Assembly (NCBI GenBank): GCA_965207445.1
Contig: CBDBLX010000002.1
Location: 128,001 to 192,000 of the forward strand
Direction: 5' to 3'
From: Nitrosopumilus sp.
GTDB lineage: Archaea; Thermoproteota; Nitrososphaeria; Nitrososphaerales; Nitrosopumilaceae
DNA length: 64,000 bases
The position numbers and the translations under genes are program-made. This document shows positions 49,501 to 58,503 of this stretch, piece after piece; position 1 is the first letter of the stretch, and every line of letters starts with the position of its first letter. The notes under the pieces are model-generated. The model ran no database searches. It was not told where the DNA came from and saw only the letters and a program-made list of their open reading frames with translations.

Positions 49501-50214
49501 TTGGGTAGTAAGTTGCCAGAACCCCCACTAGCAGATACCTCTGCTGAAGATTCACCATATGTAGCAGACACTGATGCTCAGACTATTCTCAGCAAACTGT
49601 ATCATGATGTGTTGCGTGAGGTAGAAGATGATGTTGCACTCACAGAAATAAGTGATGAACTGTATAGAAATGTCTCTGTGTTCATTGATACTCAAAGCAG
49701 AAAACGATACTCTGATGTTGAAGGCAGTATAATGGAGCAGATAATCTCAACTGCGTCGCAACTCGTTTCATTAATGTTGGATGTGCGTCTTGCAAAAGCT
49801 ACACGGTTCATGTTTTATGATGGTGATGGTGGTGGTGGTGATCATAATAATAATGATGATAATAATGGTGGGAAAAGAGATAACACTACCCTGATGATGC
49901 AGCGGTTGCTTGATGAGGAAAAGTTTATCCTCAATTCAGCAGAAGAGTATGAAGAGCGTCAGGATATTGTGTTGTCTGCGACTATAAGTGGTCGGTCCAA
50001 ACTGTTAGAATCTATATCTGAGAAACACAAGACTAGTAGGATACTAGTTCGGTTTATCAAAGATGTAGAATCGATGATAGGTGTAGATATGGAGATGTAT
50101 GGACCATTTAAGATAGAAGATATTGCAACCATACCTTATGAAAATGCTCAAGCTCTAATATCCGAAGATGTTGCAGTTCACGTGCGCTCAGAAGATTATG
50201 GGGGAAGATTGTAG
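49501..50214 (+). CDS. GINS complex subunit (Gins15/51-type)
   Basis: Helical A domain followed by B domain VRFIKDV..IGVDM..YGPFKIEDIATIPYENAQAL. Confidence 0.8.
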   Translation: MGSKLPEPPLADTSAEDSPYVADTDAQTILSKLYHDVLREVEDDVALTEISDELYRNVSVFIDTQSRKRYSDVEGSIMEQIISTASQLVSLMLDVRLAKATRFMFYDGDGGGGDHNNNDDNNGGKRDNTTLMMQRLLDEEKFILNSAEEYEERQDIVLSATISGRSKLLESISEKHKTSRILVRFIKDVESMIGVDMEMYGPFKIEDIATIPYENAQALISEDVAVHVRSEDYGGRL

Positions 50215-50384
50215 TTATTTATATGCAAATATATTTTTCAATGATATATTTAATGACCCTAATCAAATATATGCATATTAAAAATAATTATTTCGTGTAT
50301 GCGTATTTTATCTGTCGTGGGAATATGTACATTGTTGTTATGAACACATGTTATGAACACATCACTATCTGCATTGATTTTATC

Positions 50385-50530
50385 GTGTGAACCAAGATCC
50401 ATGACTGATATAATCATTCAAAATAACTACTAGCCAAATGCATCACATGCACAATACTCGACATGCAGACAGACGTGACAAAATACAAGTGTGTAATTTC
50501 ATTATTGTGTCCAAAGAGTTTGGTTCACGC
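50385..50530. mobile_element. MITE family C, left copy (146 bp)
   Basis: Termini GTGTGAACCAA...TTGGTTCACGC; inverted homologue of 52854-53001. Confidence 0.88.
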
Positions 50531-52782
50531 TAATACTCCAGCTCCAAGTCTTCAGTTTGGCTTTTTTGTCCCTCCGACCTGCAATATTTTAGTTTGATCT
50601 CGTTCTCAAAGTGCAGGCATCGCTTCATTCCAACAATTATGCCAACAGGCGCTCCGACATACATTCCCAAGTTCAATAGAATAAGTGAGATTCCATATCC
50701 CAATACCGCATGTTCAGAATTTAGGTCGACATGACTTAGAATTGACAACGAATGAATCATTGGAGTTATCGCAAGCTTGACAGCATCTTTGAGTATTGGG
50801 TTTTCCCTTTCATAATCTGCAATTGTTGGGCTGAATGAATAGTAGAAGCTATTAAACGTACTCACAAAAACAGTACCTGACTCGGTTTGCAACAATCTGT
50901 TGTCCCGGAGTTCTCGTAGCTGTTGGACTTGTGGATCTAGTTCGGAACCGTATGTAGCTGTTGCGATAAGACAGCCACCTCCATTTTCCGTTTGTTTGTT
51001 TGGTGGTTCTTCATCAAAAGACACATTTTCTGTTTGGTGAATTGTAGGCTTTTCATCAAAGGCCACAGTGCTGATTGAATTTGTAAATGCATCATGATAC
51101 GTGGGAAAATCAACAGTGTCTGCGGCAAAAAAGAGATAGTAGAATTCTCCATTTTCAAATGCCCATACAACAACATCCAGTTGGCGTTCTATGAGATAAC
51201 CATCCAGATCGAATTTCATAAATGCATCTATGTTAACTTTTGCCATATTATCGAAAAGATCTACGTCAGAGTCTATAATTTCAACTTTTATGTTTTCGCC
51301 CGTGCCCCCTGATAACCCCTCACTAAAACTTTGTAAAAATTGCTCACGGACATCTTGGTCGTCTAAGTTCAGTGATCTTTCAAAATTCGCATACATCAAG
51401 GTCACTGCCGGAGGTATAACTCCTTGAAAATTGGGTGGAATAAACAGTGCTACTGCATTTAGTGATCCAGGAGTGGATACTAGTTCAATTTGGGCATTAA
51501 GATTTTCTTGCTTCCATTGCTTCGGGGGAATAAACGAAAACCCCAAGTCAAAATCAACAAACACTTCTGAATCAGTCGTTATTTCCTCATTTACGGGTAT
51601 TGATGACGTGTCACCCAAGTAAGAAGATTCCAGCATTAGCGCGTGATCATCATAACTGATTGTAGAATAATTGTCGCCATAATACACAATCTCGACGATT
51701 TTCCCATCATCGAAGATCAAATAGGACACGTCGTATTGAATCGGTTCACCTGCATCATCGAGTTGGAAAAATGTTGCTCCTGTTAGAAACCCGTCGTTGA
51801 ATTTTATAACCGCCAGATAATCAACATGGAAAAATCCTGGAAACCTGCTAATGGACTCGGTCACCATCTTTTCTGCTTCTTCGTATAGTTGGTCTGTTTC
51901 AAGCCCATTGAATGTCTGAAATAAGTCCCGATCTTCAATGAAAAGTTCTATCTTTCCATCTGTGTTTTTAGATGAAAACTCGGCGAATTTTTGTCCGCTG
52001 AAGGATTCATTTACATCCCAATTTTCTTCCCACGAATGGGGAAATTTTATCGCAAAGCCATGTTCGTCATTAACATACCATTCTGGGGAAAATTCTACCG
52101 GAGTTATCAAGCTCATCGGTCGGGGACTAAGATCTAGAAATCCGTTAATGTTCTCCTCAAAAATTATTCTACTGTCACCTGTAGGTGCCATTCTTTCAGC
52201 AGGAGTCTTCAATACGTCAAATGAGCTTACCGACGAGATAATTTGATCTCTGTAGGATAAAAATACGTCAGTTGCGCTTTCAGAATAAATGATCCAAGAA
52301 CCAAATCCATCAGGAATCATCGTGTTAATGCTAATGTTCTCATACTGCGTCGAGTCTTCCAGTGTTTCAGTCCAAGAATAGGTATGCTGGTAGGATTTTT
52401 TTCCATCAATGTATATTACTCTTGAATCTATTAATTCGTGGTTGGTACATGTGCTTCCAAATACCTCAAGTGTAGACAATTCACAATTTTGTTCCAAACC
52501 CATGCTTAACGCATTCAGCAACTGTTCATCATCGCCTGCCCATACGAGTGACACGCTGGGAGCATATCTTACTACTAACACCGAACTCCATCCACTTGTA
52601 TCATCATAAAAAGTCACCAAATAATCAACGCCAGATTCTGAAAAGAATGTATTTTCAACCCCCCATCCAGCAGGATAATCTATGGAAAACCCCTGTTCTT
52701 CGTCAACGTATTGTAATCCATACGCTTGTATTATTCCCAACGGGGTGCACAAAACAAACAGTAACACAAGTATGGCCCTCAT
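50530..52782 (-). CDS. Acidic surface protein with three PsbP-like repeats and CFI-box-CTERM anchor
   Basis: Signal peptide; GFSIDYPAGW / GFAIKFPHSW / GFSFIPPKQW repeats; GGCLIATATYGSELDPQVQQLRELRD plus TM. Confidence 0.85.
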   Translation of the reverse strand: MRAILVLLFVLCTPLGIIQAYGLQYVDEEQGFSIDYPAGWGVENTFFSESGVDYLVTFYDDTSGWSSVLVVRYAPSVSLVWAGDDEQLLNALSMGLEQNCELSTLEVFGSTCTNHELIDSRVIYIDGKKSYQHTYSWTETLEDSTQYENISINTMIPDGFGSWIIYSESATDVFLSYRDQIISSVSSFDVLKTPAERMAPTGDSRIIFEENINGFLDLSPRPMSLITPVEFSPEWYVNDEHGFAIKFPHSWEENWDVNESFSGQKFAEFSSKNTDGKIELFIEDRDLFQTFNGLETDQLYEEAEKMVTESISRFPGFFHVDYLAVIKFNDGFLTGATFFQLDDAGEPIQYDVSYLIFDDGKIVEIVYYGDNYSTISYDDHALMLESSYLGDTSSIPVNEEITTDSEVFVDFDLGFSFIPPKQWKQENLNAQIELVSTPGSLNAVALFIPPNFQGVIPPAVTLMYANFERSLNLDDQDVREQFLQSFSEGLSGGTGENIKVEIIDSDVDLFDNMAKVNIDAFMKFDLDGYLIERQLDVVVWAFENGEFYYLFFAADTVDFPTYHDAFTNSISTVAFDEKPTIHQTENVSFDEEPPNKQTENGGGCLIATATYGSELDPQVQQLRELRDNRLLQTESGTVFVSTFNSFYYSFSPTIADYERENPILKDAVKLAITPMIHSLSILSHVDLNSEHAVLGYGISLILLNLGMYVGAPVGIIVGMKRCLHFENEIKLKYCRSEGQKSQTEDLELEY

Positions 52783-52853
52783 ATTGGTAATCTTTGATTC
52801 TTTTGTAAATACTTTTTGGGATTTGAGTGTAATCTACAGATAGAAACTAATCT

Positions 52854-53001
52854 GTGTGAAGCAAGCTCATTGTACACAACAATGAAATACATACTTGTAT
52901 TTGGTTATATTCCTATCTGTATATCGAGTATCGTGCATGCGATACATTTGGCTAGGAATTATTTTTGAATGATTATATCAGTCATGGAGATTGGTTCACA
53001 C
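52854..53001. mobile_element. MITE family C, right copy (148 bp, inverted)
   Basis: Termini GTGTGAAGCAA...TTGGTTCACAC. Confidence 0.88.
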
Positions 53002-53221
53002 ATTTTATCAATAATCTTTTTTTGTGTATTACGAAATCCTTTTTTGAGATTGCCAGCATTTACACCAAAAAGGTACAAATCTTATTTGTGTATGGTGGTG
53101 TCTTCTGATCAATAAAAGATTGATTCTGTGGCTGTCATGTTATTCTTAAAAAATTGAACAAACGATGATGCTCTAGATAATTATCAAATAGGTAAAAATT
53201 ATCAGAAAAATAACTAGACTT

Positions 53222-53506
53222 ATGTCTCATACAGGTGTTGATGTGATTGATTTTCTTTTTTATACGATATATCCTGTCATTGGATTGTTTGTTGTAGAGG
53301 GGATAGCTCGATTAATACGCGCACCAAAATGGGCCAAACTCTGGACTCAGGCTGCTGTGTCGATCGGATTTGGAATTTACTATTGGTTTTTGTTACCTGC
53401 ACCACAAAACTTTCCAATGACTGCACTGGTGTTGTTTGCACTCGCAGCTGCGCTCTTGTATCAGGGAAAGCGTGCCATGATATCACCTGAAAAGAGTCCT
53501 TACTAG
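53222..53506 (+). CDS. Small three-TM membrane protein
   Basis: 94 aa hydrophobic ORF. Confidence 0.75.
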   Translation: MSHTGVDVIDFLFYTIYPVIGLFVVEGIARLIRAPKWAKLWTQAAVSIGFGIYYWFLLPAPQNFPMTALVLFALAAALLYQGKRAMISPEKSPY

Positions 53507-57798: not shown

Positions 57799-58503
57799 TT
57801 ATTCATCTCTTGATTTAATCACTGCAAGATCAGTATAGATCGGTCCCTTTGGTGTCAGTTGACTTTTTTTTAGTTTGATCTCTTTTATTTTTTGAATGCC
57901 AAATGTAGTATTTTTTAATATGTTCAATTTATTTGTAATCGACTGTTCTCTCATTTTAACCCTAAATATTGTACTGTGTGGCTTGAATGGTTTGTCTCTT
58001 TTGTATCCTAATGGCTCTAGTACTTTTGCTACCTTTTGTGCTAGTTCTGTTATGTTGCTGTTATTGTTATTGTGGTGATACTGACGATTTGTATTGTTGT
58101 GTTGTGTGCCGTTGTGTTGTGTGCCGTTGTGTTGTGTGCCGTTGTGTTGTGTGCCGTTGTGTTGTGTGCCGTTGTGTTGTGTGCCGTTGTGTGCTGTTAC
58201 TGCAATGGGCGTGTCTGCTCCTACCCATACTATCTTTGGCACCTTGGGGTTTGGAAACGCACCTACAGTCTTTATCTCTATATCAAACGGTACAAACTCT
58301 ATTGTTGAGAGTGCTGTTGTAATGGGTGCCTGTTTTGTATCTGGTATATCACCTAGAAATTGTAATGTAAAATGTAACATATCCGCATCGACTAGTTTAA
58401 TGCATTTGAGATCTGGTAGTGATTCTGTAAATTCTGTCTGTATATTTTTTATACTCTTAATTATATCAGAGTTGTTAATCTCTACTGCAACAAACACTCT
58501 CAT
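57799..58503 (-). CDS. thpR: RNA 2',3'-cyclic phosphodiesterase (2H family)
   Basis: MRVFVAV, HFTLQFLG, FKPHSTI, LTPKGPIY. Confidence 0.92.
   Translation of the reverse strand: MRVFVAVEINNSDIIKSIKNIQTEFTESLPDLKCIKLVDADMLHFTLQFLGDIPDTKQAPITTALSTIEFVPFDIEIKTVGAFPNPKVPKIVWVGADTPIAVTAHNGTQHNGTQHNGTQHNGTQHNGTQHNGTQHNNTNRQYHHNNNNSNITELAQKVAKVLEPLGYKRDKPFKPHSTIFRVKMREQSITNKLNILKNTTFGIQKIKEIKLKKSQLTPKGPIYTDLAVIKSRDE
58096..58191. repeat. 15 bp tandem repeat x6, in frame in thpR, encoding (HNGTQ)6
   Basis: GTTGTGTTGTGTGCC perfect units. Confidence 0.95.

Follow-up and report, generated by a model that had tools for sequence, protein, structure and literature searches.

A probable composite transposon with two IS66-derived MITEs around a predicted surface protein gene in a Nitrosopumilus genome

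Gene-carrying MITE pairs in bacteria and archaea

The closest described counterparts of the locus reported here are TIME-COMP1 and TIME-COMP2 of Pseudomonas, in which a pair of MITEs encloses a core without any transposition gene, in opposite (TIME-COMP1, 2469 bp) or the same (TIME-COMP2) orientation (PMC4133298). As far as the available parts of that account go, the likeness extends to an outer duplication and to mobilization in trans, which is proposed here on the evidence set out below; both orientations also occur in the genome under study. TIMEs themselves are described in those parts as Tn3-derived elements of 262 bp with 38-bp IRs and 5-6-bp duplications, whose flanking copies are 99.6-100% identical (PMC4133298), whereas the present pair comprises IS66-derived MITEs of approximately 148 bp that are 85% alike, are associated with 8-bp duplications, and reside in an archaeal chromosome. 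Membership in the TIME family proper was rejected, as the duplication is 8 bp long and the ends match those of an IS66 element. Furthermore, transposition of TIMEs has been demonstrated with trap plasmids (PMC4133298, available parts), whereas movement of the present unit is deduced from its sequence. Composite-like MITE pairs that enclose accessory genes and are mobilized in trans have also been described for MITE-flanked class 1 integrons and MITE-297 regions in Acinetobacter and for IR148 mobilizing mcr-5; in the portions of these reports at hand, they differ from the present case in being bacterial, mostly plasmid-borne, flanked by identical copies, and loaded with resistance cargo (PMC6382973, PMC10969869).

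Archaeal accessory genes located between elements are known from the mal region of Pyrococcus furiosus and Thermococcus litoralis, which is thought to have been transposed between genera; this region is nevertheless bounded by insertion sequences rather than MITEs, and an outer duplication is unmentioned in the available part of the account (PMC2246101). According to the accessible text of a 2019 survey covering 21 genomes of thaumarchaea, composite transposons that carry passenger genes belong to those classes that went undetected in archaea (PMC6563490), and the corresponding portions of a 2026 archaeal IS survey make no mention of the word "composite" (PMC13343696). Going by these partial texts, the design of a gene-carrying MITE pair is known in bacteria and little documented in archaea, with the proviso that a 2007 review of archaeal IS elements may describe compound transposons. 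The unit described herein adds a clean archaeal case, in which the outer duplication is exact, the transposase can be named, and several sister units exist, and it offers a mechanism by which thaumarchaeal surface proteins could have come to be so patchily distributed. To the specialist it will be useful more than surprising, since the bacterial design is established and IS-flanked cargo has already been proposed for the Thermococcales; units of this type are, moreover, missed by searches keyed on transposase or integrase genes.

The unit and its locus

The window, i.e., the whole stretch of DNA that was analyzed, spans 64,000 nucleotides (G000:C2:128001-192000) of the host assembly (G000; 2.6 Mb, 39.6% GC); positions without a contig prefix refer to it (Table 1). 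As an earlier note on the bare sequence had claimed, two inverted, diverged MITEs surround a 750-aa gene. Both left ends face outward, the identity between the two MITEs is 84.8%, and their lengths are 146 and 148 bp rather than the approximately 147 bp given in that note. The left MITE has the termini GTGTGAACCAA...TTGGTTCACGC, while in the right MITE GTGTGAACCAA forms the outer end and GTGTGAAGCAA the inner end. Several further details of that description were borne out: the G of the cargo's TAG stop is the final base of the left MITE, the flanks of the individual MITEs bear no duplication of their own (5 and 6 mismatches out of 8 positions), an 8-mer is duplicated outside the pair so that 2617 bp lie between the two copies of ATTTTATC, and Pfam and NCBIfam scans of the cargo returned no transposase family. 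Measured against the criteria of the TIME-COMP type, a transposase-free core is thus present between two MITEs, and a duplication of the length typical of the family flanks the pair while neither copy has one. On the target profile used to score ATTTTATC, solo duplications average 1.8 bits. The closest copy of the left MITE in the genome is 96.6% identical (C2:840725), and the closest copies of the right MITE, which falls in a distinct clade of the family tree, are 93.9% identical.

Table 1. Positions of the unit, its host genes, and its sister composites
Feature	Position	Strand	Evidence and remarks
Left host gene, GINS51-like, outside the element	49501-50214	+	PF22090, E 3.2e-17; syntenic in congeners
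Target-site duplication, left copy ATTTTATC	50377-50384	+	Sequence; 2.4 bits on family target profile
Left MITE, 146 bp, IS66-derived	50385-50530	+	Left end outward; last base finishes cargo TAG stop
Cargo gene, 750 aa, predicted surface protein	52782-50530	-	ORF; CFI-box-CTERM
Candidate BRE and TATA-like box (AAAAAG TATTTACA)	52804-52817	-	Starts 29 nt ahead of ATG
Right MITE, 148 bp, other subfamily of the same family	52854-53001	-	Left end outward; 71 bp upstream of ATG
Target-site duplication, right copy ATTTTATC	53002-53009	+	Sequence
Right host gene, conserved 94-aa hydrophobic protein, outside the element	53222-53506	+	77-85% identity in congeners
This unit and four sisters with exact outer 8-mer	Within 20 kb		Three use two left ends, two direct
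L017, MITE and 526-bp IS66 remnant	G000:C2:413551-416440		Outer AAAAAATG twice
L018, direct-orientation MITE pair	G000:C2:840725-843455		Outer AAAATATC twice
L019, direct-orientation MITE pair, 69% alike	G000:C2:2255053-2257328		Outer AAAATATC twice
L021, 15.7-kb island, IS66 left end to MITE	G000:C2:2220820-2236555		Outer GGAATTTA twice

The locus was compared with those of 18 congeners, all of which matched the region and 14 of which returned loci. At all 14 loci the GINS51 and 94-aa genes are separated by 30-33 bp, as opposed to 3007 bp here, and the cargo gene is absent; relatives holding the gene at this position without MITEs, which would have spoken against the composite, were thus not encountered. 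Subtraction of the unit leaves a spacer of 382 bp (50215-50376 plus 53010-53221), AT-rich and unique to this genome, as compared with approximately 31 bp in congeners, and because of this residual DNA the empty site is shown at the gene level only and a single ATTTTATC can be matched in no relative. The GINS51 gene also contains a low-complexity insert near 49810-49875.

Unbranched contigs from four of four sequencing runs span both MITE-cargo junctions and both outer junctions with 0 differences, and the read depth of the cargo equals that of its flanks (four runs, one sample); as the assembly may itself derive from these runs, they are not independent support for it. No joint skipping the unit was found in these four runs of one sample, from which contigs drop rare variants, while a control site (C2:37787) gave an empty allele in the same runs; the unit therefore appears to have reached fixation in the population sampled. 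A misassembly by chimeric joining at the repeated MITE copies might be suspected from the repeat content of the assembly, its listed contamination of 5.5%, the presence of a second haplotype contig, and the fact that no Logan contig among those listed covers the whole unit. Such an artifact is nevertheless extremely unlikely: the two MITEs are unique variants, contigs of all four runs proceed from flank to MITE to cargo at similar depth, and a misjoin would not produce matching outer 8-mers. The haplotype contig in question, C1, is a 121-kb second version of C2:1-128,800 together with its junction to the end of the contig; identity between the two is 98-99% for the most part, but their mobile elements differ. 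Variation of this kind is absent from the runs at the locus of the window.

The MITE family, its candidate mobilizer, and the composites of the genome

A family profile built from 67 BLAST hits matches the genome 119 times, with 82 full-length copies of 139-152 bp that carry an 11-bp TIR core at both ends; no Rfam match was obtained for the MITE. Exact flanking duplications of 8 bp accompany 14 of the 82 full copies (22 when one mismatch is allowed, leaving 60 without), as opposed to at most one copy at every other length from 4 to 12 bp. The solo copy at C2:37787 is absent from contig C1, where AAAAATTT stands once, and its empty form recurs in four of four runs as a joint that skips 156 bases and has 8 shared letters. 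Given these counts and this empty allele, the family is a true MITE with an 8-bp target duplication, and the doubt raised beforehand, that solo copies might not generate such duplications, is removed. The family likewise has the attributes by which prokaryotic MITEs are recognized, being short, non-coding, TIR-bearing, and multicopy, with a duplication of fixed length and an autonomous partner that has the same ends. In other congeners the element was matched in only one of 150, as 40-bp ends close to contig edges of G090. Three truncated copies (C2:1271918, 1450832, and 1777133) break off at GTAACCGTTCA, a sequence suggestive of the terminus of a different IS integrated within the MITE.

Twelve further matches cover only the first 39 bases of the MITE, and one of them forms the left end of a longer element. 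This autonomous element with the same TIR and an 8-bp duplication, the existence of which had been proposed as a check, is found at C2:1264815-1266654; it is 1840 bp long, is flanked by the duplication TCGGGATC, and contains one long ORF matching PF03050 (DDE_Tnp_IS66; E 9.4e-27, 94.6 bits against a cut-off of 23.1). A second copy (C2:652719-654915), 98% identical and free of stops, is flanked by AAATTTTG. The MITE and the IS share their left ends over approximately 39 bp and their right ends over approximately 35 bp, and since these ends match, the resident single-ORF IS66 element of the ISBst12 type, with its two open-frame copies, is the likely mobilizer. Residues D313, D361, and E482 are invariant in six of six aligned transposases and presumably constitute the DDE catalytic triad. 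In the available text of PMC12898284, the ISBst12 group of IS66 is characterized by a single ORF and an 8-bp repeat, a definition that the parent IS fits with its one ORF, IS66 DDE domain, and 8-bp duplications TCGGGATC and AAATTTTG. Members of this group such as ISDge4 resemble it further in PF03050 content and in TIRs starting with GT, whereas its TIR sequence (GTGTGAACCAA) differs, and neither a MITE derivative nor composites are described in the portion of the paper at hand (PMC12898284).

Whether the outer 8-mers of the unit could match by chance was gauged with a catalog of 226 ends of MITE and IS copies in the genome. Of the cross-element end pairs, 4 of the 33 within 5 kb and 5 of the 120 within 20 kb have an exact outer 8-mer in common, where permutation gave means of 0.076 and 0.26, respectively, and 20,000 shuffles of the flanks never reached the observed counts (the maximum at 5 kb was 2 matches). 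Distant left-right pairs have the same 8-mer in 9 of 12,086 cases, and the chance rate per pair is 7e-4 empirically or 3e-4 from the target profile. The probability of some chance match among the 33 pairs is 0.07, and the excess of 4 matches over 0.076 expected implies that any given one has a probability of approximately 2% of being fortuitous.

These figures bear most directly on the notion that the gene arrived first by another route and that two MITEs then inserted independently beside it, lost their own duplications, and ended up with like outer 8-mers by coincidence. Such a history draws on the density of the family, the AT-richness of its targets, the prevalence of copies without duplication, and the residual 382-bp spacer, which attests to another gain of DNA at the site; it is nonetheless highly improbable in view of the low match rate per pair and the occurrence of ATTTTATC at 2 of the 226 catalogued ends, both of them at this unit. 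Three other routes were rejected for this unit on geometry, namely inversion between the two inverted MITEs, inverse transposition via the inner ends, and recombinational integration of a circle bearing a MITE. They would produce outer flanks that differ, a duplication on the inside, or repeats in direct orientation.

Because 4 of 33 pairs match where about 0.08 are expected, the genome contains several composites without a transposase, of which this unit is one, and the anticipated MITE pairs with different cargo were indeed found (Table 1). L017 holds a nucleotidyltransferase-HEPN (MNT-HEPN) pair and another repeated element. L018, whose left MITE is the closest relative of the left MITE studied here, holds a 375-aa protein without a Pfam match and a 1-kb repeat with about five genome copies; its flanking genes have matches in each of 12 congeners, at a spacing of about 55 bp wherever the two are listed for a single contig. 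The cargo of L019 is an AAA_14 and DUF4143 gene distributed across two frames, and L021 contains several IS-like genes together with predicted exported proteins with a coiled-coil-like tail in common at the C-terminus. A sixth candidate pair (2176024-2176977) has outer 8-mers with one mismatch. For the two direct-orientation sisters, L018 and L019, integration of a circle is a conceivable alternative route. A broader reading is put forward tentatively and with more doubt than confidence: the IS66-derived MITE family may be a recurring gene-capture system, with at least five units, in which any two ends, including two left ends or a MITE and an IS remnant, take along the DNA between them and which moves surface-protein genes between thaumarchaeal genera.

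Taken with the duplications of solo copies, the resident IS, and the sisters, the outer duplication supports the earlier contention that the block moved as one, but to call it direct evidence was a slight overstatement, as neither an empty allele of this unit nor a donor site was found. The 2617-bp block is, very probably, a non-autonomous composite transposon inserted in trans by the resident IS66-type transposase. Two MITEs of different subfamilies would have inserted in separate events, one on each flank of the gene, at a donor site that was not located. The transposase would then have paired their two outer left ends, a plausible step given that the family consensus has one and the same 15-mer as its left and its right TIR. 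The block would next have entered the spacer between the GINS51 gene and the 94-aa gene, duplicating ATTTTATC, and would finally have become fixed in the sampled population with the gene and its candidate promoter intact.

What landed may nevertheless have differed from what is now present. The 114 flanks of the 57 full copies with at least 3 flank mismatches score 1.05 bits on the transposase target profile, as compared with -1.86 bits for nearby DNA (p 2e-27); as these unlike flanks still fit the profile, ends seem often to have been rearranged after insertion, a sign that end-mediated deletion, or exchange between MITE copies by recombination, is frequent in this genome. A composite could accordingly have landed and made the duplication and then changed in content, either by inner-end deletions that trimmed it to the stop and the promoter or by recombination at both MITEs that swapped the cargo, in which case the unit that moved would not be the present 2617-bp one. 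Besides the flank scores, the very tight fit to the gene (0 bp past the stop and 71 bp before the ATG) favors such a change, as does a cargo tail of 31 residues after the "GM" that closes the membrane segment, where nine orthologues have at most 14. Against it stand the full length of both MITEs and the score of the left inner 8-mer on the target profile (2.1 bits), a fit expected of a donor duplication remnant (the right one, at -1.6, does not fit); nor was any longer version of the unit seen in the runs or in the assembly. Later alteration of the content is on the whole improbable, if less so than independent insertion, and insertion of the block in its present form is preferred.

The cargo gene, its promoter, and its relatives

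The cargo is predicted to be a surface protein. It contains a CFI-box-CTERM (NF041770) at residues 604-676, with a score of 78.3 bits against a cut-off of 40 that places it within that family, along with a hydrophobic N-terminus (a predicted signal peptide) and a C-terminal hydrophobic segment; 16% of its residues are acidic, and it has 4 N-glycosylation sequons. A PsbP-like domain is recognized at residues 24-190 (26.8 bits versus 23.5), and weak self-similarity (p 0.01-0.05) suggests that two more diverged repeats probably follow, for a total of three. A sequence search of the PDB yielded no match for the cargo, and the term CFI-box was not found in a literature search. MITEs are not a general feature of CFI-box genes, as only 1 of 8 other CFI-box matches has a family end within 6 kb.

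The leaderless promoter described in the earlier note is a candidate that is well positioned but weakly matched. The TATA-like TATTTACA lies at -29, within the TATA peak of the genome at -30 to -27, and would as a candidate promoter yield a leaderless transcript; in score it ranks at the 82nd percentile among 746 genes and is equaled by 9.5% of shuffles, and the match is therefore not statistically strong.

Ten full-length relatives of the cargo are 48-74% identical to it over the first 585 residues, with the orthologues P0002 and P0013 at 74%. Judging by the names and taxa attached to relatives of the cargo, the host is probably a thaumarchaeote. Among 150 congeners no full-length orthologue was detected, and 6 had partial matches of 22-31%; among 400 genomes of the family, G222, which belongs to another genus, contains a 62% orthologue, the best one with a known genomic locus, in addition to which one near-full-length match of 29% and one partial match were obtained elsewhere. 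The G222 orthologue occupies another locus, convergent to Lsm-rpoA-rpoB-rpoH, with no MITE adjoining, and the sole match of the MITE profile on its contig is weak and lies inside rpoA. A dN/dS of 0.16-0.21 between the cargo and this orthologue indicates purifying selection on the gene throughout the span that separates them. Two scans of metagenomes and one of viruses gave no further cargo loci, and the genome scan gave the G222 contig only. Within G000, only CFI-box paralogues and no second copy of the cargo were found, and the inner 8-mers (TAATACTC and ACTAATCT) adjoin no other family end, so that no donor site could be identified in the genome; the G000 locus that is syntenic to that of the G222 orthologue likewise lacks any end of the family.

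On account of this distribution among relatives, rather than of codon usage, it is likely, albeit with considerable reserve, that the cargo reached this lineage from outside its genus; its patchiness could also stem from loss in congeners instead of gain. The exchange of surface proteins between cells, for which the earlier note saw a possible route, is deduced from the same patchy distribution only. The codon usage of the cargo does differ from that of seven neighboring long ORFs, as had been remarked, but it is no genome-wide outlier: the various measures span the 11th-48th percentile, with the codon log-likelihood at the 11th percentile of 790 ORFs and Karlin B at the 27th, and GC3s is 0.35 against 0.32 +/- 0.09 for the genome. 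Codon usage was hence rejected as proof of foreign origin, both usage and GC being ordinary for this genome. Elsewhere in the window, an ORF at 57799-58503 that by eye resembles a 2',3'-cyclic phosphodiesterase contains an in-frame 15-bp tandem repeat in which TQHNG recurs about six times.
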